A stretch of 37,150 nt of DNA from IMG/VR virus record IMGVR_UViG_2561511241_000003. One strand, given 5' to 3'. Each line of letters begins with the position of its first letter. The first letter of the stretch is position 1. This DNA is from a virus (Duplodnaviria > Heunggongvirae > Uroviricota > Caudoviricetes). Of this stretch, positions 1-28,563 are shown piece by piece. A model generated the notes under the pieces. That model saw nothing but the letters and a program-made list of their open reading frames with translations, made no database searches and was not told where the DNA came from. Both the position numbers and the translations under genes were made by a program.

Positions 1-381
1 TTATGAGTTCTGGAATTCTTCTGCCCGTCTTTCCAGCTCAGCCATGAAAGAAGTTTTGGCTTTTTCGTGAGCATCTGGGGCCATGATGCTGATGATTTGT
101 ATATTGTCATAATCCATCCAGTGCCTTGTATAAACCAGATAGATATTTGAAGTTCTGTCTATTTGGGCTTTGCTTTTCTTCCATGGTGGTTCTGACGGTA
201 GTCTTATGTGTAATTTATATACAAACGAACCACATAATCTTGCGTTATCTTCCCACTGCCCTTCATTGCCGAATCTGTCAGGGAGAACACCGGTATTTAA
301 CCAGTTTTCCAGAGCCTTTCCGTAAACTTTTGCAATGTCCTGGTATTCAACATCTTTATGAATGCTTACTTTGCTTGCCAT
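1..381 (-). CDS. YafO-family toxin-like protein (126 aa)
   Basis: Complete ORF with stop at 1-3. Motifs GVLPDRFG, HIRLP, IYLVYT and a C-terminal IISIMAPDAHEKAK block match my recollection of E. coli YafO (DGVLPDIFGRD, HIHL, HLVY, IAILKPEPHK). Start overlaps the stop of the upstream ORF, consistent with an operon. Confidence 0.5.
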   Translation of the reverse strand: MASKVSIHKDVEYQDIAKVYGKALENWLNTGVLPDRFGNEGQWEDNARLCGSFVYKLHIRLPSEPPWKKSKAQIDRTSNIYLVYTRHWMDYDNIQIISIMAPDAHEKAKTSFMAELERRAEEFQNS

Positions 382-1019
382 CAGGAAAACTCCGGTGCCG
401 GGAGTCCCATGTTTTTATGCTCGGCAATAATCATTGCTTTCACATTTCCGTCAGACAGCGTATTGCCTAGGCTGGTCGTTTTGTCTGGTGCGGTGCTTCG
501 TTTGATGGCGTTGATGGCATCACGAGCGATAAACTCTCCCTGCGCAATTGCCCGACCAAAACGAACCAGTTTATTGCGATAGGCGATTCTTTGCTCCATG
601 CTATCCGGATACATTTTTGCCAGGTTATCCGGATCCATTACAATTTTGACAGCCTCTTTAACACGGCTGTGCTGCTTAAGTGACTCTTCGCATATTTTTA
701 TGATTTTTGCGGTTTTGTCAGCAAACAGAGCTCCCTTGCCTCTGTTCTGTCGTTCTTCAATGACTGCATTGAGCGCGGCACGCATGTTGTCATTCAGCCC
801 GTTGATATATTCAATAGCTTCTTCAAGAGGCAGAAACACCTGACCATCATGATGCTCAAATGTAAGCATTGAAACCACTCTGGCGTGTGTCACGGATTCA
901 ATAACTGTTGTTGGTAGTATCGTGCTTTTAGCTGGCACCGGAGCCAGTGATGCTGTCAGAGCTGTAGCAATAGCAGCAATGGCAGCAGACTTTGATTTTT
1001 GTTTCATAATGCACTCCAC
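381..1019 (-). CDS. hypothetical protein, putative partner of the toxin-like gene; start uncertain (Met1, Met5 or later)
   Basis: 212-aa ORF co-oriented with and immediately upstream of the toxin-like gene. N-terminus MKQKSKSAAIAAIATALTASLAPVPA is hydrophobic and signal-peptide-like. No motif recognised. Much larger than classical YafN/Phd-type antitoxins. Confidence 0.35.
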   Translation of the reverse strand: MECIMKQKSKSAAIAAIATALTASLAPVPAKSTILPTTVIESVTHARVVSMLTFEHHDGQVFLPLEEAIEYINGLNDNMRAALNAVIEERQNRGKGALFADKTAKIIKICEESLKQHSRVKEAVKIVMDPDNLAKMYPDSMEQRIAYRNKLVRFGRAIAQGEFIARDAINAIKRSTAPDKTTSLGNTLSDGNVKAMIIAEHKNMGLPAPEFS

Positions 1020-1405
1020 AGGTTGATGTGTTCAGCATATCGCAAATAGCAGCTTGTATAAAGCAACGCCACATCAGCAGTGATCGTTTTACGCGCTTTT
1101 CTTCTTGGATTTGCTGGTCGGTTTTTCTGCGCCAGCTTCCGTCAGTCGTGACATGCTGAAACACTTCTGCACGCTGTTGTTGCAATTGTTCGCCGGGCTT
1201 TACATCAGGCAGGTTATGACCGATGGGTAAGATTTGCCTGATAACAGGCTTATCCGGGCGTCCTTCAATGTTGGATATTTCCACGATGGTGCCTGCTGGC
1301 GGGTAGGCAAAACATCCCGCCTCACTGCCAGCTATGGGGCGGGGGAGTGGTACTGCCGGGTAAATGGGTGTATCGCTTTTTTTGTTACTCCGGCAATTCT
1401 GTCTG

Positions 1406-1666
1406 TTAATTCTGAGGTAAAGGCAAACTCATCTGATTGTTTCCCCTGTGTGAAGCTGGCAGATCATGCCACGGGATACCTTCTGAAGAGTGAACGCCGG
1501 AGGCGTGTTTTGATGTGAATTTATGGAAAGCTTCCAGTGTTGAGAAGCATACGCCGCATTCCAGATTGTTACACTGGTAATACTTTTGCCGCACGGTGTT
1601 TGAATCATTTTCTGGACGACTGGTGCGGATACGGGCAGATGCGCCACAAAGCGGACAACGGAACAT
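1406..1666 (-). CDS. ogr: Ogr/Delta-family zinc-finger late-gene transcription activator
   Basis: N-terminus MFRCPLCG...YYQCNNLECGVCF has the Cys4 pattern of P2 Ogr. Lies directly downstream of gene D, as in P2. Confidence 0.85.
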   Translation of the reverse strand: MFRCPLCGASARIRTSRPENDSNTVRQKYYQCNNLECGVCFSTLEAFHKFTSKHASGVHSSEGIPWHDLPASHRGNNQMSLPLPQN

Positions 1667-1708
1667 AGCGACCTCCCTTAACGTGGTGCTGCCGCTATTC
1701 TAAGTTGC

Positions 1709-2941
1709 TCACTCTGTTTCCGCTATCCATTCCGGGATTTTTGCCTCAAGCTCAAGCTGCGTGGTAAAGCCGCTGTTATCAATGGTGTGCTCGGCTTTTG
1801 CAATAATCCAGTCCTGATTATCAATCTCGCTTTTAAATCCTGTTACCGTGCCATGCATTTCGGGGTAGAGTTCTGCGCGTCCACGTGCCAGTGTGATGGA
1901 GAATGATGCGGCTCCGCGTTGTAGCTGCTGCCACTTTGCCGCCGCAGCGCGTCTTGCTGCCTGTTCGTTCTGATAAGTCTTGCGTAACACAAACACGTTG
2001 CCTTCCGCACCTTCCATATAGTCGCCTTCACGGCTACTGCTTTTCTCCATTTTCGGTTTACGGCGTTTCACGCTGACTTTTTTCTTTTTCCCGTAATTAA
2101 GATCAAGCCAGTAAGCGCGTACCCCCGTATACGCTTCGCGGTCAGCAATGCGGAACTGATGGCGATCGCCACTGCTGCGCGTGATGGCGAACGATGGCAA
2201 CGGCTGGCCCTGTGCGTTCACGCCACCGCCTGGCATAATGAATAACAGATTACCGCTTTTTACCGTGGTGATTGCGCCCAGCATTTCCGCCATGCGCGTA
2301 AGAAAGGACATGTCGCTTTCTTCGGTCTGGTCGGCGTGGTCGATTTCGATATCCATCAGCATTTCGCTGATTTGCGGTTTCAGACCGTACCGATGAGCGA
2401 TGGCGGATACCACACGCTCAACGGTCACATCATGCCAGGACACCTCACGTTTAACGTTAAATTCATCCCGAAAATCTGCGCTTCTGGCTGAAACAGTCAG
2501 CCTGTCCGGCGGTCCTTCGTGAGCGATTTCATCAACAATGTAAGTGCCTTTTTCTGTCAGCGGTTCTCCTTTCCAGCCAATGAGAACCGTCAGGCGCGCG
2601 CCCCGTGGCGGTAGCTGCAACTGACCATCTGCATCATCCAGCGTGATGGTGAGCTGGTCCGCCTCAAATCCCCGGTTGTCGGTCAGTGACAGGCTCATCA
2701 GGCGCTCTGCCACGCCTGACAGCGTTTTACCCTCCGCGAGAATATCAAAATCCGGCATTTTCACGGGGTCTGTGCCCTGACTGAGCAATTGCATGGTGGT
2801 GTCGGTCATCTGTTCCCTCCCTGTGCGGCATGGTCGCATGTGCGTGCGGAGGGGGTTACTGCTTTTTGTTGTCGCCGTGGCGGGAGAACGTCGCAGGGGT
2901 GAGATTACGCGCGTGGTGGGTGATGATTGTTGCCGAATCAT
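1709..2941 (-). CDS. D: tail protein D (late control gene D family)
   Basis: 410-aa ORF of the size and position of P2 gpD, next to ogr. Assigned from P2 synteny and length. Confidence 0.85.
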   Translation of the reverse strand: MIRQQSSPTTRVISPLRRSPATATTKSSNPLRTHMRPCRTGREQMTDTTMQLLSQGTDPVKMPDFDILAEGKTLSGVAERLMSLSLTDNRGFEADQLTITLDDADGQLQLPPRGARLTVLIGWKGEPLTEKGTYIVDEIAHEGPPDRLTVSARSADFRDEFNVKREVSWHDVTVERVVSAIAHRYGLKPQISEMLMDIEIDHADQTEESDMSFLTRMAEMLGAITTVKSGNLLFIMPGGGVNAQGQPLPSFAITRSSGDRHQFRIADREAYTGVRAYWLDLNYGKKKKVSVKRRKPKMEKSSSREGDYMEGAEGNVFVLRKTYQNEQAARRAAAAKWQQLQRGAASFSITLARGRAELYPEMHGTVTGFKSEIDNQDWIIAKAEHTIDNSGFTTQLELEAKIPEWIAETE

Positions 2942-2966
2942 TTAACGGATACAAGGGGCTGAAGCT

Positions 2967-4151
2967 ATGAGTGAAACTCGTTTTCATGGCGCCCGCGTTA
3001 CGGAAAGTACCGACCTGGTAACAGCAATTAACGACGTTGATTCCAGCGTTATCGGTATCGTGGCAACGGCGGACGATGCGGACGCGAAGCTGTTCCCGCT
3101 GAACAAGCCTGCATTAGTGACCCGCGTCAATGACGTGCTGGGAAAATGCGGGACAACGGGGACGCTGTACCGTGCGCTGAAACCCATTGCAGACCAGGTG
3201 AGCACAAAGGTGATCGTCGTTCGCGTGGCTGAACACAAAGAAGAAGACGGAAAAACACAGGATCAACTGGTTATTGGTGGTTCTGAATCCGACGGCAGCT
3301 ATACGGGGATGTATGCGCTGCTTGTTGCAGAGCAGGATGAAAGCATCGGATACCGTCCGCGTATTCTGGCCGCGCCGGGGCTGGACACGGAGGCGGTGAC
3401 AAAATCCCTGTGCGTGATTGCAGGTAAACTGCGCGCGTTTGTGTATGCCTCCTGTCATGGCTGTAACACGATGGCTGAAGCCATTGCATACCGTGAAAAA
3501 TTCAACGAACGCGAGCTGATGCTCCTGTGGCCGGACTTCATCGCTTACAACCCGAAAAGTGGCGAGAATGAGGTTTTCCCCGCGCCAGCCTATGCGTGCG
3601 GCCTTCGTGCGTACATTGACCATGAGCAGGGCTGGCACAAATCGCTGTCCAACGTTCCGGTCAAAAATGTGCTGGGGATGTCCAGGCATGTGTTCTGGTC
3701 GTTGCAGGCTGCTGACAGCGATGCCAACAGCCTCAACAACAAAGAAATCACAACCATCATTCGCCGCAACGGGTTCCGCTTCTGGGGCAACCGCACACCG
3801 GAAACGAATGCCTACATCTTTGAGGTGTATACCCGAACCGCACAGGTGCTGGCTGATTCAATTGCGGAAGCGCAGTTTGAAACCATCGACAGTCCACTGA
3901 CGCCCGCGAACGTGAAGGATGTTATCAGTGCCATCAGGGCAAAACTGGATTCGCTGGTTACTGCCGGGAAACTGATTGGCGCATCGTGCTGGTATGACAT
4001 CGTGGATAACAGCACCACAGAATTACGACAGGGGCGCGTGCGTATTCGCTATAAATATACGCCCGTTCCTCCGCTGGAAGATATGGAGCTTTACCAGGCG
4101 TTCACTGATGAGTTCTTTGGTCCTGCATTTGCAGTGCTTGGAGGTGCTTAA
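2967..4151 (+). CDS. FI: contractile tail sheath protein FI
   Basis: 394 aa with motifs DADAKLFPLNKP, KLRAFVY, RELMLLWPDF, EQGWHKSLSNV, IRRNGFRFWGNRT, YTRTAQV and YKYTPVPPLE that match P2 FI as I recall it. SD AAGGGG lies 9 nt upstream of the ATG. Confidence 0.92.
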   Translation: MSETRFHGARVTESTDLVTAINDVDSSVIGIVATADDADAKLFPLNKPALVTRVNDVLGKCGTTGTLYRALKPIADQVSTKVIVVRVAEHKEEDGKTQDQLVIGGSESDGSYTGMYALLVAEQDESIGYRPRILAAPGLDTEAVTKSLCVIAGKLRAFVYASCHGCNTMAEAIAYREKFNERELMLLWPDFIAYNPKSGENEVFPAPAYACGLRAYIDHEQGWHKSLSNVPVKNVLGMSRHVFWSLQAADSDANSLNNKEITTIIRRNGFRFWGNRTPETNAYIFEVYTRTAQVLADSIAEAQFETIDSPLTPANVKDVISAIRAKLDSLVTAGKLIGASCWYDIVDNSTTELRQGRVRIRYKYTPVPPLEDMELYQAFTDEFFGPAFAVLGGA

Positions 4152-4663
4152 TGGCCGTACCAAAACATCTTCGTTTTTTTACGCTGTTTGTGGATGGTGA
4201 AAATGAAGTGGGTAAGGTGACGTCTGTCACCCCGCCTAAACTGACGCGTAAAACCGACAGCTATCGTGGTGGTGGCATGCTGGGAGCGGTGAGTATCGAC
4301 CTCGGCCTGGACGATTCCGCGCTTGATGCGAGTTTTGTCATGGGTGGCGCCGTTCGTGCGCTGTTCCTTAAATATGGCGGAACAATGGACGGCACGCTGC
4401 TGCGTTTTGCGGGTGAATACTACACCGATGCAGAAAGCGACCTGTATGAAATCGAGATGCGCGGGCGTGTGACGGAAATTGATATGGGGGAGGCCAAACA
4501 GGGCGAAGCCACGTCACACACTTACGCTGTCAAAAACACCTACTACAAGCTGAGTATTAACGATCGTCCGGTGTGGGAAATTGACCTGGTGAACCACATC
4601 TACCGGAAGGATGGCAAGGACATTGTACCCGACCGCATCCGCTCCGCGCTCGGGCTCGGCTGA
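4151..4663 (+). CDS. FII: tail tube protein FII
   Basis: 170 aa directly after the sheath gene with ATGA-type overlap. Size and position match P2 FII. Confidence 0.9.
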   Translation: MAVPKHLRFFTLFVDGENEVGKVTSVTPPKLTRKTDSYRGGGMLGAVSIDLGLDDSALDASFVMGGAVRALFLKYGGTMDGTLLRFAGEYYTDAESDLYEIEMRGRVTEIDMGEAKQGEATSHTYAVKNTYYKLSINDRPVWEIDLVNHIYRKDGKDIVPDRIRSALGLG

Positions 4664-4717
4664 TAAGTAATATGCAGGCGGCGCAGTGCGTCGCCTCTGA
4701 CTGAAAGGAGTTTTCTG

Positions 4718-5086
4718 ATGAAAGAGACGAAAAATACCGATACTGAAAACGCTGTGGTGGTTGCTGATACTGCGAAAGAAACCAGCGAGCGCGGCGTAAA
4801 ACTTACCCAGCCAATTGAGCGAGGCGACGAAAAAATCACGTATGTGGAGATCACCGGGGCTATTGAGCAGGCTGGATCCCTGCGTGGTCTGTCGCTGTCT
4901 GATGTGCTGAGTCTGAAAGCGGAATCCATGTTTACGCTGTTGTCACGCGTGACATCACCGCGACTGGATGAAGTGACGATCAAAAAAATGGCATCCCGTG
5001 ACTTTATTCAGTTATGTGTGGTTGCCGTAAATTTTTTGAGCGGTGCGGACTCTGGCGGGAAGAACGAACAGGCGACGGAAGCCTGA
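4718..5086 (+). CDS. E: tail assembly chaperone E
   Basis: 122-aa ORF between the tube and tape-measure genes. Contains the slippery heptamer TTTTTTG near its 3' end. Confidence 0.8.
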   Translation: MKETKNTDTENAVVVADTAKETSERGVKLTQPIERGDEKITYVEITGAIEQAGSLRGLSLSDVLSLKAESMFTLLSRVTSPRLDEVTIKKMASRDFIQLCVVAVNFLSGADSGGKNEQATEA

Positions 5087-5250
5087 TCACGGTTGTGTGC
5101 TTTGAGCACATAGAAGACTTTGTGGCAGATATTGCCGTTATTTTTAACTGGTCGCCCGCCGAAATCTTCATGATGACGCCCGGCGAAGTGGTTAGCTGGC
5201 GTGAGCGGGCGGCACTTCGCAGTGGGAATGCAGACAATGAAGACTCTTGA
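4718..5250 (+). CDS. E+E' tail assembly chaperone made by programmed -1 frameshift
   Basis: The -1 frame is open from the slippery site to 5250 (track ORF 5014..5250) and overlaps the start of T. This is the conserved arrangement in P2-like and many other tail gene clusters. Confidence 0.65.
5033..5039 (+). other. programmed -1 ribosomal frameshift slippery site TTTTTTG
   Basis: AAT TTT TTG in the E frame. The -1 frame reads KFFER and continues open to 5250. Confidence 0.6.
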
Positions 5251-8038
5251 CATTCGGGTCGCCTTCAGTGCTGTTGACAGGCTGACCCGGCCAGCCGAAA
5301 ACGCCCGCCGCCTGATGGGGCGGCTTGGTGACTCCATCCAGCAAACGCAGGGGGCAATCAAAAATCTCGAGCGTCAGGCGCGTTCATTTGAGCGCGCCCG
5401 CGATGCTGTCAGTAAAGCGGATGCTGGCATCGTGAAAGCACGACGCCAGCTTAACGCCCTTCATCAGTTACAACGCACGGGTACTGTGCTCAGCGAAAAA
5501 CAACAAAGGCTGATGCAGCAGTTAAGCACCCGGCTTGAACGCCTGAATGAATCGCGCACGCGGGAAATTCAGAAAATGCGGGAGCTTGGCGGAGAGCTTA
5601 AACGCCACGGTATTTCCCTGACAGGCAGCGATAACACCATCCAGCAGGCCATCAGACGCACCGAACAGTACAACAACCAGCTTGAACGCGAACGACAGGC
5701 GCTTGCGCGTGTAACGCGGGCGCGTGAGCAGTATTCACGCGCGCAGGAAACAGCGGGAAAACTGAAAACGGGTGGTGCGCTGGCAACTGGTGCGGCAGCG
5801 GCTGGCGGCTATGCTGCCGGGCGTTTTTTGCAGCCCGCTATCGGATTCGGGAAAGAGATGTCCCGTGTGCAGGCGCTGACGCGAATTGACCAGAACAGCC
5901 CGCAGTTTAAGGCGCTGCGTGAGCAGGCGCTAAAGCTCGGCTCTGAAACGCAGTTTACTGCGAGTGATGCCGCCAGTGGGCAGGCATTTCTTGCTATGGC
6001 TGGCTTCACACCAGAAGCCATTCAGGCTGCGCTTCCCGGCGTGCTGAGCATGGCAACGGCTGGCGGTATGGACCTTGGCGAGACGGCGGATATTGGCTCA
6101 AATATCCTGACGCAGTTCGGTCTCTCTGCTGACCAGATGGACCGGGTCGGCGACACACTTACTGCGGCGTTTACCCGTACTAACACCGACCTTCGCGCGC
6201 TGGGCGAAACCATGAAATATGCAGGTCCGGTGGCGGGTAAGCTGGGAATATCGCTGGAGCAGGCCGCAGCGATGGCGGGCGTGCTGGCGAATATGGGTAT
6301 CAGAGGGAGTGATGCCGGGACGGCAATGCGTGCCAGCCTTGCTCGTCTGGCATCACCGCCAAAGGCGGCAGCAGAGGCGCTGAAAGAGCTTGGTGTGGCT
6401 GTCTCTGATGCGAACGGCAAAATGCGCCCGATGGAGGATGTGCTGGCCGACCTTTATAAAGCCACCCGCAAATACGGGGAAGTTGACCGGGTATCGTTCT
6501 TTAAGGACATAGCCGGAGAAGAGGCCTTCACGTCATTTATGGCCCTCGTTGATGCGGCAGGTGACGGTTCTCTGCCCAAGCTGAGAAAAGAACTTGAAGG
6601 CGCACGCGGTGAGGCTGAACGCACGGCAAAGGTTATGGCCAATAACCTTGATGGCGACCTGAGATCACTCGGCAGTGCATGGGAGGGGCTGCGTATCCGC
6701 ATTGCGGATCTGATTGACGGTCCGCTGCGCTCTGTCACGCAGTGGCTCACTCGGGTGGTCTCAAAGGTGACGGAGCTGGCGCAGGCCCATCCGGCACTGA
6801 CGCGCCAGCTACTGATTGCAGGCGGTGCGCTGCTGGCAATGACTGCAACGGTTGGCTCGTTGTCACTGGCTCTTGGGGTGCTTGCTGGCCCGCTGGCAAA
6901 ACTGCGTCTTGGTTTTTCCCTCCTGACCGGATCAATGAATGCTGTCAGGGTCCTGCCAGCGCTGTGGGGAATGGTGGCGGGTTCCGTCTCTTTACTTGGA
7001 GGCGCTATCGGGGCGTTGTTCAGCCCGGTCGGTCTTATCGTGGCTGCGCTTGCCGGAGCTGCCGCTCTCATCTGGAAATACTGGGACCCAATCAGGGCAT
7101 TTTTTGCCGGGGTGTTCAGCGGGATTATGGAGCGGCTGGCCCCGTTACGCGAAACCTTTGAACGGTTTGGCCCTGTTTTCGAACTAGTTCGTGATGGCGT
7201 GATTCAGGTCTTTAACTGGTTTACATCGCTGCTGTCACCGATGGAATCCAGTAAGGAAACGCTGGATAAATGCACCAGTGCTGGCGAGGTGTTCGGCAAC
7301 GTTCTTGGCGGTGCGTTACAGCTTGTCCTGACGCCTGCAAAAATGCTGCTGGATACGCTGGCATGGATACTGGAAAAACTTGGCGTCCTTCCAGATGAAG
7401 CGGAAAGGGCGAGAAAGAAAATCGAAGACGCGCAGCGTGCGGCCATTCTTCAGGACAAGGTTGCTTTGCTTCAGGGGGACCTGGCAAAAATCAATCCGCC
7501 GAAATCTGCGGAAACAGGGACCGGAGGCGATAAGCCTAAAGACAACAAGCCGCTCACGGACAACAACACTGGCACGCTGCGCAGGCTCAGCAAAATTGCA
7601 GATAACACAGGCAAGCTGGTTGATGAGACGAAAAAGCGTATCGGCCCCGGTGATATTGTCTTTAAGAACCTGCCCCGTGCGCTTGCTGTTCGCGGGGAGT
7701 GGCAGGAGCGGAAGATTGCGCAGGTCAGTAAGCCTGCTTCCGCAATCAACATCACACCCGTGGTCCCGGCTCCGTTATCTCCGGTGTTGCCCCCTGTTGT
7801 TGCAGCAAGCTCCCGTCCGGTCGTGGAGGCCGCACGTGCGCCAGTTGCGCCCGTTTCCGCATCTTCCCGCAGCCGGGAGACTGCGGCACCCGAATTTGGT
7901 GGTGAAATTCATGTCCATCTGCATAACGTTGTTACGCAGAATCCCCGCGAACTGGCGAAACTGGTCGGCGAAATGGTCAGGGCAGAACTGGAGCGGCGTA
8001 CCCGTGCCGGGCGTGGTAGCTTTTATGATAAAGAGTAA
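5201..8038 (+). CDS. T: tail tape measure protein T
   Basis: 945-aa ORF with coiled-coil N-terminal region, Gly/Ala-rich hydrophobic central segment and Pro/Ala-rich C-terminal part. Sits between E/E' and U. Confidence 0.9.
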   Translation: MSGRHFAVGMQTMKTLDIRVAFSAVDRLTRPAENARRLMGRLGDSIQQTQGAIKNLERQARSFERARDAVSKADAGIVKARRQLNALHQLQRTGTVLSEKQQRLMQQLSTRLERLNESRTREIQKMRELGGELKRHGISLTGSDNTIQQAIRRTEQYNNQLERERQALARVTRAREQYSRAQETAGKLKTGGALATGAAAAGGYAAGRFLQPAIGFGKEMSRVQALTRIDQNSPQFKALREQALKLGSETQFTASDAASGQAFLAMAGFTPEAIQAALPGVLSMATAGGMDLGETADIGSNILTQFGLSADQMDRVGDTLTAAFTRTNTDLRALGETMKYAGPVAGKLGISLEQAAAMAGVLANMGIRGSDAGTAMRASLARLASPPKAAAEALKELGVAVSDANGKMRPMEDVLADLYKATRKYGEVDRVSFFKDIAGEEAFTSFMALVDAAGDGSLPKLRKELEGARGEAERTAKVMANNLDGDLRSLGSAWEGLRIRIADLIDGPLRSVTQWLTRVVSKVTELAQAHPALTRQLLIAGGALLAMTATVGSLSLALGVLAGPLAKLRLGFSLLTGSMNAVRVLPALWGMVAGSVSLLGGAIGALFSPVGLIVAALAGAAALIWKYWDPIRAFFAGVFSGIMERLAPLRETFERFGPVFELVRDGVIQVFNWFTSLLSPMESSKETLDKCTSAGEVFGNVLGGALQLVLTPAKMLLDTLAWILEKLGVLPDEAERARKKIEDAQRAAILQDKVALLQGDLAKINPPKSAETGTGGDKPKDNKPLTDNNTGTLRRLSKIADNTGKLVDETKKRIGPGDIVFKNLPRALAVRGEWQERKIAQVSKPASAINITPVVPAPLSPVLPPVVAASSRPVVEAARAPVAPVSASSRSRETAAPEFGGEIHVHLHNVVTQNPRELAKLVGEMVRAELERRTRAGRGSFYDKE

Positions 8039-8049
8039 GGAGTCGTGCC

Positions 8050-8538
8050 ATGATGATGATCTACGGCATGTTTGTTTTTGAGTTGCGCACATTACCGCAT
8101 CAGCAGTTACAGCAAAACAAAAGCTGGCGACATGTGAAAAACGAGCGCGTTAACCGTTCAGCAAGCTGGCAGTATATCGGTGCAGGTGATGATCGCATCG
8201 TTCTTTCCGGCGTGCTTTATCCTGAGATTACAGGCGGCGAAGTGTCGCTGTCGCTGCTGGCCACGCAGGCGTATGCGGGACGCCCGTGGCCTCTGATTGA
8301 TGGCGTCGGGCAGATTTACGGCATGTATGTTCTGACTGAAACGAGCACGACCCGCTCTGAACTGGATCGCTACGGGAAAGCGAAAAAGATAGAGTTTTCC
8401 CTGACCCTTGAACGCTGTGATGAGGATTTGCGGGAGCGCCTGCAATCCTCATCGTTCAGTGATATGCTGTCCGGTCTTAAAGATAAGGTGACATCATCCC
8501 TTAACAATGTGGTCAGCTCAGTTAAAGGGGTGTTCTGA
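8050..8538 (+). CDS. U: tail protein U
   Basis: 162-aa ORF directly after T. Size and position match P2 gpU. Confidence 0.85.
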   Translation: MMMIYGMFVFELRTLPHQQLQQNKSWRHVKNERVNRSASWQYIGAGDDRIVLSGVLYPEITGGEVSLSLLATQAYAGRPWPLIDGVGQIYGMYVLTETSTTRSELDRYGKAKKIEFSLTLERCDEDLRERLQSSSFSDMLSGLKDKVTSSLNNVVSSVKGVF

Positions 8539-8546
8539 TTTAACGT

Positions 8547-8579
8547 AAAAACCGCTAATGTTCAGATTAGCGGTTTTTT
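8547..8579. terminator. bidirectional hairpin between convergent U and invertase genes
   Basis: AAAAACCGCTAAT-GTTCAG-ATTAGCGGTTTTTT: a perfect 13-bp stem with A-run and T-run flanks. The right arm overlaps the invertase stop codon. Confidence 0.5.
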
Positions 8580-9175
8580 GTTTCCTGAGTATTCTCAATT
8601 ATTCCTCCGGGTTGCGTGTCACCTACAGGGTGATAACGATAAATCGTCGATATACCGATGTCGTAAATTATGGCCAGCTGTTTTCTGTCGTGGCCGTTTT
8701 TAATCAGCCTCGCTATTTGCTCATGTTGCTCTTTTGTCAGTTTCGGGCGACGCCCACCAATTCGCCCCTGTGCGCGGGCTGCTGCCAGTCCGGCCAGTGT
8801 ACGCTCTACAATTAATTCACGTTCCATTTCAGCCAGGGCGCCCATCACGTGGAAGAAAAATCGTCCCATTGGGGTACTGGTATCAATTGAATCCGTCAGA
8901 CTACGAAAATTGACACCTTTTTTCCGCAATTCCTCAATCAGTGTGATCAGGTGTTTCATGCTTCTGCCCAGCCTGTCCAGTTTCCAGACAACGAGCGTAT
9001 CCCCCGCTGATAACGTTCTGAGCAGTTTTTTCAATCCCGGTCTGGCTGATTTTGTTCCGCTGATTTTATCTTCAAAAATCAGTTCACATCCTGCGCTATT
9101 GAGCGCATTGCGTTGCAAATCCGTGTTCTGGTCATTTGTTGATACGCGAATATAGCCAATTTGCATAAAAAGCAT
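8567..9175 (-). CDS. serine-recombinase DNA invertase (Hin/Gin/Cin/Pin family)
   Basis: N-terminal IGYIRVSTNDQ catalytic-serine motif, resolvase fold motifs (VVWKLDRLGRS) and C-terminal HTH (IGISTIYRY). Adjacent to the invertible tail-fibre segment. Confidence 0.92.
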   Translation of the reverse strand: MLFMQIGYIRVSTNDQNTDLQRNALNSAGCELIFEDKISGTKSARPGLKKLLRTLSAGDTLVVWKLDRLGRSMKHLITLIEELRKKGVNFRSLTDSIDTSTPMGRFFFHVMGALAEMERELIVERTLAGLAAARAQGRIGGRRPKLTKEQHEQIARLIKNGHDRKQLAIIYDIGISTIYRYHPVGDTQPGGIIENTQETKNR

Positions 9176-9194
9176 CCTGTTTCTGTTAGTAAAA

Positions 9195-25192: not shown

Positions 25193-27418
25193 TTACGAAC
25201 GAATAGGAATTGATGTTTGCGGTTGAATTGGCACGAGCACCTGATTATAAGTACGTAAAATTTCGTTATACAGGTCTTGGTGCTTTGATGCCTTAATGGT
25301 AATTATAAGAGCATACTTGATTTTTTCTGCCTTATGGCTGGCTATGCTTGCACCGGCCTCACGAGCGTTATAATGAATGTCAAATACAGGATTTTTTAGA
25401 GTTGAACCTAGCATGTTCTTCGAATTATGTAAGACGGTCTCCCATTTGCCCATGTCAGAACGTCGCTCACTTTCAGTTGAATATTTGGCCAGTTCAAAGA
25501 ATCCCTTGGTTTCAGCATTTTGTTTTCCGTCTTTGATTTTTGAATCATTTGGCCGGAATGTCACTTCCAAACCAGCTTTTGTATAGGAAGCTGGGTCTTG
25601 TGGATCAGTGGTTGTTGCATAACAGAAAGTTGCCGCTAAGTTTATTCTACCTTTCAAGCCACCTTCAGGTATTGGAAGAGGAGCGCGTAAGTATTTTCCT
25701 GGTTTCAATTCACCTTGGTAGACGATACGGGCAACACCATCAGGGCTGACTATAATGTCGTTCAAGTCTTCAGGAAGTTTTCCCCAGCCAACTTCTGTAC
25801 AAGGATGATCAAGCTGTTTTGACGCATGAATTAACAAAGCTTTGATTGCTAGTAGGCTCAAATCGTTCCCTAAAATTGCCCGAACACCAACAGCTGCTCG
25901 TAAGGCGTAAGGAGAGGCAAAGCTTGTTCCTAGCTGGGGTATGATTACAGGCTTCTTACCTTTACCTAAAACATGAAAGTACTCGTCTGTGTCACCACCA
26001 AACGCAACTAAATCCGGTTTCATCACGCCAGGACTTCTGCCTGGCCCAATGGCGCTATATGGTGCTCGTTTCCATTCCGTATCATTAACTGTATCACAAG
26101 CACCAACAGCAAGAGCATTAACGCAATCGGCTGGTACTTGAATTCTTGCATTACCAGACTTGCGATCCATTTCTCCATTGTTGCCAACAGCAACAGTCAT
26201 TAATGTTTCACCATCACTTAACAAATCATCAATAACGGAAGTCCATGCATGAACTTCCGTATCTTCAATTGGTAGGTCTGGACCTAAACTTAGATTGATA
26301 AACTGATACTGGCGAGACAACAATACCTCTTCAATAAAGCCCAAAGTTCGATATAGTTCCAGCGGATCTTCTTGGCAGGTCTTGTTGTCCAAAACTCTTA
26401 AGTTATCAATATAAGAGTATGGTCTTTTCGCTTCCGATTTATTACTTATTGGTCCAAATAAAAAGGCTGAAGACACAGCTAAACCATGCTCTAAACCGTC
26501 TGGATCATCCTCTGCATGATCGTCCAAAACTCTATAGGATTTTAACCATGGCGATATAGCGTGCTCTGATGGTAAACCACCATCAAGAATCGCAACTTTT
26601 ATTTCTGAAGATACGGGGCCCTCAGCAGGCAATTTACACTGAGCTAAAGGACCGTAGTTCCTTTGTATTGGTCTAATCCCACGCAATCTTGGAACCGGTC
26701 TTATTACTCGTACAAATGTAAATTTCGCAAGCTTACTAATAGTAATTCTATCGGCCTGGATTGGCACGAACCATAATGTACCAGCGGTAAAAGCTAATGA
26801 AGTATGTACTTTGATGTTCAAATTTGATGCAAACTGAACAAATTGTTGCTGAACCAAGTCTTGTTCATTATCTGGCAGTAAATGAACACCAACCTCAAAA
26901 TACGAAGAATCCTGCTCACCAATGGTAATAATACGCTCTTCGGGTAAATAGGCATCGAACCGTTCTATGCGTGCAAAATCAATCGCTTCGTCAGAAAACT
27001 CTTTGAGTCCTGACACCCAATGAGGTAACTCTTTGAAGGATTCTCTTTTACCAGCAACAAACATTTGTGTCGTAGTTACTTCTGACACAGTAACTTTTCG
27101 CTTCCAGCTTTGAGGCGTAATTTTTACCGTCCTGCTGCCAATAGACGTTAACCCGGTAGACTTAAGCATTTTTGCAGGAAAAAAAGAGCGTGCAATATAG
27201 CTCGGATTCAACGTCAACTTAGCCACAGCATAATCATAAGGACATGCCTGACTGGGTAAATCATCAAAATTTTCTATAGTAGATGCAATTTGCGGCAATA
27301 AACGTTGTTTCGATTCGTAAAGAGAATAAACCTCAGCTTTTCCGGGCACTCTTTTAGGACCAGGAATATCGCTGGTTAATAATTCGCCGCGTCCAATCAG
27401 AAAATTAGTTTTCGCCAT
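25193..27418 (-). CDS. cytoplasmic S8 subtilase-like serine protease with unassigned N- and C-terminal regions (741 aa)
   Basis: Catalytic motifs in canonical order: Asp279 (KVAILDGG), His311 (EHGLAVSS), Asn413/414 (VGNNGE), Ser499 (GTSFASP). No signal peptide or propeptide. Residues 1-270 and 540-741 carry no motif I recognise. AT-rich codon usage. Confidence 0.85.
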   Translation of the reverse strand: MAKTNFLIGRGELLTSDIPGPKRVPGKAEVYSLYESKQRLLPQIASTIENFDDLPSQACPYDYAVAKLTLNPSYIARSFFPAKMLKSTGLTSIGSRTVKITPQSWKRKVTVSEVTTTQMFVAGKRESFKELPHWVSGLKEFSDEAIDFARIERFDAYLPEERIITIGEQDSSYFEVGVHLLPDNEQDLVQQQFVQFASNLNIKVHTSLAFTAGTLWFVPIQADRITISKLAKFTFVRVIRPVPRLRGIRPIQRNYGPLAQCKLPAEGPVSSEIKVAILDGGLPSEHAISPWLKSYRVLDDHAEDDPDGLEHGLAVSSAFLFGPISNKSEAKRPYSYIDNLRVLDNKTCQEDPLELYRTLGFIEEVLLSRQYQFINLSLGPDLPIEDTEVHAWTSVIDDLLSDGETLMTVAVGNNGEMDRKSGNARIQVPADCVNALAVGACDTVNDTEWKRAPYSAIGPGRSPGVMKPDLVAFGGDTDEYFHVLGKGKKPVIIPQLGTSFASPYALRAAVGVRAILGNDLSLLAIKALLIHASKQLDHPCTEVGWGKLPEDLNDIIVSPDGVARIVYQGELKPGKYLRAPLPIPEGGLKGRINLAATFCYATTTDPQDPASYTKAGLEVTFRPNDSKIKDGKQNAETKGFFELAKYSTESERRSDMGKWETVLHNSKNMLGSTLKNPVFDIHYNAREAGASIASHKAEKIKYALIITIKASKHQDLYNEILRTYNQVLVPIQPQTSIPIRS

Positions 27419-27441
27419 ACATACTCCTTATCTATGCTGTA

Positions 27442-28563
27442 TTACATTTTTTGACTGTATTTTCTAATTGTATCCCTACTGACTCCGGTTAAGTCTGATA
27501 TGGCATGCTGGGATAATTTAGAATTTCTTTTTAGAGTAACTGCAATTTCTTTACGTTCATTCCTGTCTAATTCTGATAAACCATCTTTAATGAACGACCC
27601 AATCAACTCTTCATCTGAGGAAATACCTAAAGCGACCGAACGTCGGAATTTGTTGATAGAACGCTCAATATTACTAAAAGATTCATTTTTGAACATAATA
27701 GCCAGTAGATCTATCCAACGTGCAAAAATCGCGTAGTCGGGACCTGAAAAGCGTTTAATTGCTTCTTTAATACTTTCGCTATCTGGCTTCTCAAAATTGA
27801 GCACTAAATCAAAACGTCTCCATAGTGCTGGATCAATCAACTCAGCGAAGTTAGTTGCAGCAAGTAGCAAACTAGAAGACGGCCATTCGTCAACCTCCTG
27901 GAGTATTACGGTAACAAGTCTTTTTAATTCTCCAACATCAGAATCATCACTTCTCTTTTTGGCGATTGAATCAATTTCATCTAACAGAAGAACGCACGGC
28001 CCTTTCTTCGCAAAATCTAGAGCTGCCCGAAGGTTATTTCCGCTTTTGCCCAGATAGCTGCTCATTACTGCCGTTAAATCAAGAACGTAAAAAGGAACCC
28101 CTAATTTCTGAGCTAACCAGCTTGCCGTAAGTGTTTTACCTACACCCGGAGGGCCAACAAAAATGGCAGAGCGTGTTGGTTGTAAGCCGAGAGTCTTGAG
28201 GCGATCGATGTGCTTCCGCTCAAGAATAATTTGATCCAGTGAGTCTTCTATCTGACTGGACAGTAGAGGTTTGCTCACAATCTTTTCATTTGGTGCTTTA
28301 AGCAAGGTAAGCCTTGACTCCTCGTCCACAGGCATGGTTTGAGGCAGCGCTTGTTTTGGTGCGGTAACCTTACGCAGGCTTTGTGCAGGCTTTTGCGGTT
28401 TATTTCGTAGATAAAGATCAAGCTGCTCGGATAGAGCAGGCATAGTTTCCCGATATTTACGCACCAAGCGAGCGACATATAACCGAACGTCATCATACTG
28501 TTCAGTTATTACCAGTCTAACTAGTTGGGCTAAATCTGACTGAATACCACCTAAGTCGCCCAT
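27442..28563 (-). CDS. AAA+ ATPase with C-terminal helix-turn-helix (373 aa)
   Basis: Walker A GPPGVGKT (137-144), Walker B LLLDEID (192-198), sensor-1 Asn in AATNFA, RRFD arginine finger, C-terminal HTH ~340-370 (LSQHAISDLTGVSRDTIRKY). SD AAGAGG upstream. 23 bp upstream of the subtilase gene. Confidence 0.85.
   Translation of the reverse strand: MGDLGGIQSDLAQLVRLVITEQYDDVRLYVARLVRKYRETMPALSEQLDLYLRNKPQKPAQSLRKVTAPKQALPQTMPVDEESRLTLLKAPNEKIVSKPLLSSQIEDSLDQIILERKHIDRLKTLGLQPTRSAIFVGPPGVGKTLTASWLAQKLGVPFYVLDLTAVMSSYLGKSGNNLRAALDFAKKGPCVLLLDEIDSIAKKRSDDSDVGELKRLVTVILQEVDEWPSSSLLLAATNFAELIDPALWRRFDLVLNFEKPDSESIKEAIKRFSGPDYAIFARWIDLLAIMFKNESFSNIERSINKFRRSVALGISSDEELIGSFIKDGLSELDRNERKEIAVTLKRNSKLSQHAISDLTGVSRDTIRKYSQKM

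Follow-up and report, generated by a model that had tools for sequence, protein, structure and literature searches.

What kind of partner does a YafO-family toxin keep when it is carried by a prophage? The question is raised by the first kilobase of IMGVR_UViG_2561511241_000003, a viral DNA record of 37,150 nucleotides (nt) which, at its full length, is referred to here as the window. The host element is a P88-like prophage (Xuanwuvirus, P2 family) integrated at the serS terminator, and the window begins with two genes on the minus strand: a YafO-family toxin gene and, directly upstream of it, the gene of a 208-amino-acid (aa) partner. YafO is among the least studied of the RelE-type toxins, and only the YafN-YafO pair of Escherichia coli K-12 has been characterised. 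The YafO toxins that prophages, phages, and plasmids carry are paired with other proteins, undescribed and ~175-210 aa long. An earlier note on this DNA, the original prediction, had been made from the letters alone; it proposed either a toxin-antitoxin (TA) or abortive-infection pair with an unusual antitoxin, or a secreted effector with its immunity protein. The answer favoured here, with a probability of roughly 0.65, is a type II-like TA cassette carried as prophage cargo, in which a new antitoxin family would neutralise a YafO RNase through its C-terminal tail. What is new is the partner family, the tail that it shares with other YafO partners, and a recurrent signal-like N-terminus.

The YafO-family toxin

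The toxin gene (126 aa; 1..381, minus strand; ATG 379-381, stop TAA 1-3) encodes a bona fide YafO-family protein with a RelE fold, an ordinary member of its family. In a hidden Markov model (HMM) search, the protein matches the Pfam model YafO_toxin (PF13957) at 96.5 bits (E 1.1e-27; the cut-off is 25 bits), over model positions 2-101 of 101. It shares 31% identity with YafO of E. coli K-12 (BLASTP E 3e-9), and the YafO resemblance of the original prediction is thereby borne out. As the score for the NCBIfam equivalog NF007377 is 42.7 bits, under the cut-off of 153, the toxin is regarded as a family member and not as the K-12 YafO orthologue. A match to PHROG 1651, which has no assigned function, was also obtained. 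The AlphaFold model, built from 29 homologues, reaches a pLDDT of 90.5 and has a RelE-like alpha/beta fold, with structural matches to RelE, HigB, YafQ, and YoeB. Residues G38, H58, R76, L82, P102, H105, and F123 are invariant in nine diverse YafO-family proteins from K-12, phages, and plasmids, and the His/Arg residues are held in common with K-12 YafO. The Pfam domain search found the YafO domain only, with no N-terminal delivery, PAAR, Rhs, LXG, or CDI domain, and the PADLOC-DB v2 HMMs gave 0 families at E<=1 for either protein of the pair.

The YafO of K-12 cleaves translated mRNA, is toxic when produced alone, and is neutralised by YafN, which autoregulates its operon and is Lon-dependent (PMC2814082). 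According to a later study, as summarised in a survey, the cleavage may not require the ribosome (PMC11980606); the same survey counts ~1,000 members in the YafO family, with the gene order antitoxin-toxin (PMC11980606). Judging from family membership, the window's toxin is probably an endoribonuclease that halts translation by cutting mRNA.

Gene layout and expression signals

The coupling of the two genes is tight. The gene of the partner, the presumed antitoxin (208 aa; 381..1007, minus strand; ATG 1005-1007, stop TGA 381-383), ends in a TGATG junction, where base 381 belongs both to its TGA and to the ATG of the toxin gene; the overlap of the toxin start with the upstream stop, as originally described, is therefore real and one base long. 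The upstream open reading frame (ORF) had been read as 212 aa. The frame exists, but its GTG at 1019 falls within the Shine-Dalgarno sequence GGAG that serves ATG 1005-1007, and the ATG is the start given by PGAP and by all homologues, so that a partner of 208 aa is most likely. This GGAG (1014..1017, minus strand) stands 6 nt ahead of the ATG at 1007. A second GGAG, for the toxin gene (390..393, minus strand), lies in the final codons of the partner gene, 8 nt ahead of the toxin's ATG; both were read from the sequence. The cassette thus comprises two genes in ~1.2 kb, and a strong hairpin terminator follows 19-48 bp beyond the toxin stop, i.e. outside window position 1.

The evidence for a promoter in the window is weak. 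A candidate, TTTATA-17 nt-TATGCT (1034..1062, minus strand), was found by hand and has 8/12 matches, while a default consensus promoter scan reported no site upstream of the partner. The pairs of Photorhabdus, Serratia, and Budvicia have better hexamers (TTGATC-17-TATAAT or CATAAT), which align at the same upstream distance. A promoter-like region accompanies the pair in several genera, clear in these three and weak in the window. Additionally, an Rfam scan of positions 1-1800 found no RNA gene, and there is therefore no hok/sok-type element like that of P88.

Linkage, co-evolution, and decay of the pair

Of 20 loci, drawn from ~12 genera, 19 have a YafO-family gene immediately after the partner gene, with a spacing of -4 to +11 nt. 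The two proteins have also evolved together: across 136 pairs, the pairwise identities of partner and toxin are correlated (r = 0.83). Conservation is without exception higher in the toxin than in the partner (mean 62% vs 45%), as TA pairs usually show. The pairs are found as two-gene islets between housekeeping genes, such as between rne and DUF496 (locus L003) and between aldose epimerase and glyceraldehyde-3-phosphate dehydrogenase genes in Yersinia (L038), and also, in Serratia, Salmonella, and E. coli, where a P2- or HP1-like prophage ends. Among 5,426 complete E. coli genomes, 23 carry the pair, and none of these copies is plasmid-borne.

The decayed copies are informative as well. In two loci (L018 and L024) the toxin gene has a premature stop beside an intact partner gene, and in two others (L030 and L032) both genes are degraded. 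An intact toxin with a broken partner was not found in any locus examined. Such toxin-first decay, seen in a very small sample, is what a partner that protects against the toxin should leave behind. One apparent case of the opposite kind, a '68-aa partner' beside an intact toxin in Salmonella (L037), was rejected as a gene-calling artefact, since the ORF is intact and only 1 nt away from that of L035. The latter locus, at an HP1-like prophage end of Salmonella enterica, has a feature of its own: a Phd/Doc module (PhdYeFM + Fic) stands directly upstream of the partner/YafO pair (L035 3190-5387), and two TA modules thus follow each other in tandem.

The partner protein family

The 208-aa partner has no match in Pfam, NCBIfam, PADLOC, PHROGs, or the PDB sequences. 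Its family profile, compared by hhalign with K-12 YafN, gives a probability of 0.6%, i.e. no resemblance; together with the lack of a Pfam hit, this agrees with the original prediction that the upstream ORF is unlike YafN-, Phd-, or RelB-type antitoxins. No DNA-binding domain of the helix-turn-helix, ribbon-helix-helix, AbrB, or Phd/YefM kind was found in the Pfam search. Three things set the partner apart from known antitoxins: the lack of a DNA-binding domain, the lack of a relative in the known antitoxin families, and an N-terminus that resembles a Sec signal. A literature search returned no account of this partner family or of signal-bearing antitoxins.

The family is small, with 38 clusters at 90% identity among 5.8 billion proteins and, in a profile search, 32 representatives among 1.84 billion proteins; all members belong to Enterobacterales or Vibrio. 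AlphaFold models the partner as a bundle of helices (pLDDT 74), in which residues 28-53 form a linker of low confidence. In structure searches the PDB matches of this model are generic helical ones only, and no match was found in the viral structure library BFVD. Down to 22% identity, the best-conserved parts are an N-terminal (L/M)APVPAxS, a central FGRA, and a C-terminal I..EHK.LGL..P.F. Many homologues carry the NCBI label 'iron-sulfur cluster assembly scaffold protein SufA' (proteins P0003-P0035; L002 6381-7007). This identity as SufA or HesB was rejected: no SufA, IscA, or HesB model in Pfam or NCBIfam matches the partner at E<=1, and the name is therefore apparently a propagated annotation error.

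The shared C-terminal tail

A clue to how the partner may act is its conserved C-terminal tail (VKAMIIAEHKNMGLPAPEFS; 384..443, minus strand; partner codons 189-208), which is proposed as the toxin-binding segment. In the family alignment, E196 and H197 never vary, L200, G201, and P205 hardly do, and the consensus reads H-x-x-L-G-L-x-x-P-x-F. Other phage YafO toxins are preceded by uncharacterised partners of comparable size, namely 199 aa in CUS-3, 190 aa in a Flyfo siphovirus, and 175 aa in a Klebsiella phage-plasmid. By profile-profile comparison, only the last ~20 residues of the CUS-3 and Flyfo partners align with the window's partner family, with low probability. Their tails can nevertheless be set side by side: HKNMGLPAPEF in the window, HKRFGMEAPKW in CUS-3, HILLGAEPPNW in Flyfo, and a looser G.EAAAKW in Klebsiella.

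A regular expression derived from the window's partner family, H..[LMF]G[LIMA]..P.[FW], was run on 460,870 six-frame residues, from all the DNA collected for the analysis. It matched 24 times, and all 24 matches lie 1-4 residues from the stop codon of a gene whose immediate downstream neighbour is a YafO-family gene; the matches take in the CUS-3 and Flyfo partners, and 0 background matches occurred in the 460,870 residues. A shared motif is claimed here but not homology of the whole proteins, because the profile comparison is weak. As the tail is the sole feature common to otherwise unrelated phage YafO partners, it is proposed as the toxin contact. Binding of the toxin would be its simplest reading, and the short shared tail offers a concrete, mutable candidate for the neutralising contact.

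The signal-like N-terminus

At its other end, the partner begins with a Sec-signal-like segment (924..1007, minus strand; codons 1-28), composed of MKQKSKS, then AAIAAIATALTASLA, then PVPA, with KS after the likely cleavage point. The n-region is K/R-rich with a charge of +3. The h-region is uncharged and Ala-rich, with a KD10 of 2.29 (MalE 1.92, OmpA 2.66), and V-P-A occupies positions -3 to -1 of the likely cleavage point. This n/h/c pattern bears out the hydrophobic, signal-like N-terminus of the original prediction. The Hessa sum over 19 residues, +4.7, argues against a stable transmembrane (TM) helix. Family members with as little as 22% identity keep both the (L/M)APVPAxS motif and the n/h pattern.

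The assessment of the signal is heuristic, as it consists of hydropathy measures and a crude Sec rule. The rule flagged 31 of 252 long ORFs, 14 of them partner homologues; the others include LolA, BamD, an L,D-transpeptidase (Ldt), TamB, and a phage lysozyme, and the CUS-3 partner, the Flyfo partner, and YafN were left unflagged. Moreover, the plasmid-borne partner family of 175 aa, which is unrelated in sequence, also has a signal-like N-terminus (e.g. MKDSITKIAMVVALALSSLSHGSYA before KD). This family occurs in 257 plasmid records, and its N-terminus varies in the manner of signals. Signal-like N-termini in two unrelated partner families are unexpected because antitoxins are expected to be cytoplasmic. 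In plasmid and phage-plasmid loci, thiol-redox genes recur beside the signal-bearing partner: a glutaredoxin (GrxA-like) or DsbA-family gene stands before the partner/YafO pair and a tyrosine recombinase gene after it (L033 467-727; L040 1-576; L041 359-604).

Several features do not fit a simple signal. The c-region motif APVPA is more conserved than most of the mature partner, two family members with a degenerate h-region still keep it, and AlphaFold (AF2) packs the strand of residues 21-25 onto that of 56-60. Candidate roles for the N-terminus are export that would shorten the life of free partner, dependence on SecB/SecA, or a purely structural one.

Proposed mechanism and its alternatives

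The original proposal of a TA or abortive-infection pair whose antitoxin is unusual draws support from the translational coupling, the co-occurrence and co-evolution of the genes, the toxin-first decay, the YafO/RelE-fold toxin, and a partner in which no known antitoxin domain is found. In the mechanism favoured here, the partner would be made first from the shared mRNA owing to the TGATG coupling. It would be a dedicated neutraliser that grips the toxin through its C-terminal tail (..AEHKNMGLPAPEFS), and unbound toxin would halt translation by cutting mRNA. Once the supply of partner fails, the cassette would stabilise the prophage and/or abort infection. The toxicity of the toxin and its neutralisation by the partner are presumed, and a benefit to phage or host, be it addiction or abortive infection, would be like that of other prophage-borne TA modules.

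A number of points weigh against this mechanism. For this subfamily, toxicity, binding, and neutralisation are inferred, and the decayed loci are very few, only two of them being informative. A DNA-binding domain is lacking in the partner, and classical autoregulation is therefore not evident. When profiles alone are compared, the tail of the CUS-3 family is only weakly similar (hhalign E 0.0024, probability 12%), and members of the Morganella/Proteus/Vibrio type have a shortened tail (..EHKKLKLPV) from which the P-x-F part is lost. Furthermore, a conserved Sec-type signal is hard to square with a cytoplasmic neutraliser, since a partner that is efficiently exported would not hold a cytoplasmic RNase.

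A more novel reading, put forward tentatively and considered perhaps a one-in-four prospect, is that for YafO-family toxins of mobile elements the cytoplasmic level of the antitoxin is set by export instead of by Lon/Clp proteolysis. The N-terminus would then be a working Sec signal, likewise in the plasmid family. Free partner would continuously be exported or passed to SecB/SecA, and only toxin-bound partner would stay; a stop of partner synthesis, or a disturbance of export in a phage attack, would free the RNase. If true, this would define a class of TA systems with the secretion pathway as timer and sensor.

A neutralising partner may also be the wrong assumption. Prophages often encode periplasmic or membrane exclusion proteins, and the partner could be such a protein, exported or inserted into the membrane and acting outside the cytoplasm in superinfection exclusion or in the envelope, merely co-transcribed with a YafO-like gene that is non-toxic or otherwise controlled. 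The conservation of the n/h/c pattern across the family and its recurrence in the unrelated 175-aa plasmid and phage-plasmid family would suit such a role. We nonetheless regard it as unlikely in view of the strict pairing, the translational coupling, and the co-evolution of the two genes (r = 0.83); in addition, the signal-less CUS-3 and Flyfo partners have the tail in common with it, the only single-gene losses seen are toxin-first, and the toxin retains the residues conserved in the toxic K-12 YafO.

Less probable still is a reversed logic, in which the partner would be an activator. Sec export would normally clear it from the cytoplasm; its precursor, accumulating only when export or proton-motive force fails, for instance upon phage injection or holin action, would activate or release the RNase via the tail, making the pair a sensor of envelope integrity for abortive infection. 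The signal-like N-termini of the two unrelated partner families speak for this logic, as do the prophage and plasmid contexts of the pair, which are rich in defence or addiction genes (IetAS in the same prophage, Phd/Doc in Salmonella, an ABC-ATPase nuclease beside the pair in E. coli A2). However, K-12 YafO is toxic alone, and its upstream partner neutralises it (PMC2814082); a tail without a signal is seen in the CUS-3 and Flyfo partners, and no locus has lost the partner while keeping an intact toxin, which this logic would allow.

That the pair is an inert prophage remnant whose function is lost seems very improbable. The neighbouring spacer is indeed a gene remnant, this prophage copy has suffered an insertion, and the pair is rare among the complete E. 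coli genomes, yet both ORFs are intact with good ribosome-binding sites and are 98-100% conserved across strains and insertion sites, and constraint acts at the protein level over ~12 genera, with motifs conserved at both termini of the partner. Least probable of all is the other proposal of the original prediction, a secreted effector with an immunity protein for interbacterial competition, which is not supported: the signal-like N-terminus of the upstream protein is its only argument, whereas the toxin is a bare 126-aa YafO domain without a delivery domain, no secretion-system genes were found near the pair in any locus examined, and the signal sits on the putative immunity protein and not on the toxin, a ribosome-linked RNase without a periplasmic target.

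Prophage position and the cargo slot

The pair had been placed beyond ogr, which is correct, and had been called either phage cargo or immediate host flank, of which the former has proved right and the latter wrong. The same prophage is present in E. coli ETEC4085, where it separates serS from dmsA, two genes that are neighbours in K-12. The 20-bp att core AAAGCGCCTGCGGGCGCTTT, identical to the serS terminator, is duplicated at the serS and dmsA junctions there, and the YafO pair is located on the prophage side of the copy next to serS, ~160 bp from it. Strain GF31 has the same 1.7 kb, 99.9% identical, beside ihfA, and in strain A2 the pair recurs with 98% identity near raiA, at another prophage remnant. 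The pair is therefore cargo: the att duplication encloses it, and it moves with prophage ends to serS, ihfA, and raiA.

The last conserved phage gene before the cargo slot is that of the ogr/Delta zinc-finger late activator (1406..1666, minus strand; Pfam Ogr_Delta E 5.2e-14), and sequenced P88-like phages are similar to the window from 1371, within ogr, onwards but not before. Between ogr and the cassette, the spacer consists of 279 bp (1108..1386, minus strand) left over from the interior of a 565-aa gene; PGAP annotates this piece as a partial pseudogene. By blastn, window 1108-1386 is 92.8% identical to L002 8133-8411 and shows a 1025-bp deletion relative to A2, where the intact 565-aa gene (L002 7608-9305; no Pfam domain) stands by the same YafO pair. 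The spacer being a remnant of the A2-type gene, the cassette probably entered the phage by recombination with another prophage end. The 565-aa gene of A2 is itself found downstream of an HP1 ORF34-type baseplate gene.

In related Xuanwuvirus phages, the ogr-att slot is occupied by hok/mokW in P88 (L009 747-887) and in Chuche (L010 1535-2844), the latter also with a com/mom-like methyltransferase. The slot thus repeatedly holds addiction- or modification-type cargo, and the ogr-att slot of P88-like prophages is defined here as a cargo site for addiction/defence-type genes. A second site lies deeper in the window, where IetS (741 aa, S8 peptidase) and IetA (373 aa, AAA ATPase) are encoded at 25193-28563 on the minus strand (PADLOC E 6.7e-52 and 1e-77), between the replication endonuclease and portal genes, i.e. 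in the P2 hotspot of Rousset et al. 2022 (PMC9122126). With IetAS and the YafO pair, the prophage has therefore two separate cargo loci.

Other features of the window concern the state of this prophage copy. An IS3-family insertion of 1313 bp occupies 14698-16010 and contains a 404-aa transposase ORF (14740-15954, minus strand); the ETEC4085 prophage, 99.9% identical in other respects, lacks it. The insertion sits at the boundary of virion-morphogenesis and baseplate genes, so this copy may be defective. Compared with ETEC4085 (L034 30608-31073), ~465 bp are missing or rearranged around window ~8567-9246, beside a Cin/Gin-like serine recombinase; this tail-fibre difference is consistent with an invertible segment in another state. 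The gpD tail gene (window 1709-2941) is open for 410 codons from its first ATG, vs 366 aa in P88 gpD, and PGAP gives a 263-aa 'VgrG/Pvc8 family' protein and a small pseudogene on the identical sequence in other strains, so that the gene models disagree.

In E. coli ETEC1749 (L008), the search for direct-repeat att sites at the prophage ends failed because the prophage there is a rearranged hybrid. The left 11 kb (window 1-11053, from the toxin to the tail-fibre invertase region) continues into the body of another P2-like prophage, the hybrid having serS on one side and rcdA on the other, and the remainder of the window's prophage lies ~65 kb away. The arrangement implies an inversion via recombination between two resident P2-like prophages.

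Comparison with known systems

As a place for cargo, the slot resembles the old/tin hotspot of P2 between gpA and gpQ (Rousset et al. 2022, PMC9122126), which is likewise a small variable locus with defence or addiction genes between conserved landmarks. It differs in lying between ogr and att, and three kinds of contents have been seen in it: the YafO pair, hok/mokW, and hok with a com/mom-like methyltransferase.

The pair itself shares with yafN-yafO of K-12 a PF13957 toxin with a RelE-like fold, the antitoxin-toxin order, overlapping or abutting genes, and the conserved His/Arg residues. In contrast, the partner has 208 aa where YafN has 97, it lacks a Phd/YefM-type fold, and it begins with a signal-like N-terminus; the location differs too, prophage cargo here and the SOS (dinB) operon in K-12. 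The pairs of CUS-3 (P22-like), of the Flyfo siphovirus Tbat2_3, and of the Klebsiella phage-plasmid GArcari and IncF plasmids are comparable too, as each has a hypothetical protein of ~175-200 aa overlapping the start of a YafO_toxin gene, the tails are similar, and the plasmid family has a signal-like N-terminus as well. These partners nonetheless have no detectable similarity to that of the window outside the last ~20 residues, and those of CUS-3 and Flyfo are without a hydrophobic N-terminus.

If the signal is real, TA control would be linked to protein export, which has previously been raised only for the SecB-dependent toxin-antitoxin-chaperone (TAC) systems. These include a SecB-like chaperone, and their antitoxin is extended by a ChAD segment (reviewed in PMC4257090). 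Like the pair described here, they combine a RelE-superfamily toxin with an antitoxin that has a hydrophobic extension, possibly tying its fate to Sec/SecB. The extension of the window's partner is N-terminal and resembles a cleavable signal, whereas ChAD is C-terminal, and no third gene for a SecB-like chaperone was found in the loci examined, the flanks of which differ in every case. A SecB link of the window's partner is accordingly speculation by analogy. A last comparison is offered by the BECR-fold toxins ToxM, described as the first possible membrane-associated type II TA (Gerdes 2025, PMC11980606). Both are RelE-superfamily TA modules with a predicted membrane link. In ToxM the TM domain is part of the toxin; here no stable TM helix is predicted, the toxin is soluble, and it is the partner that carries a short signal-like segment.

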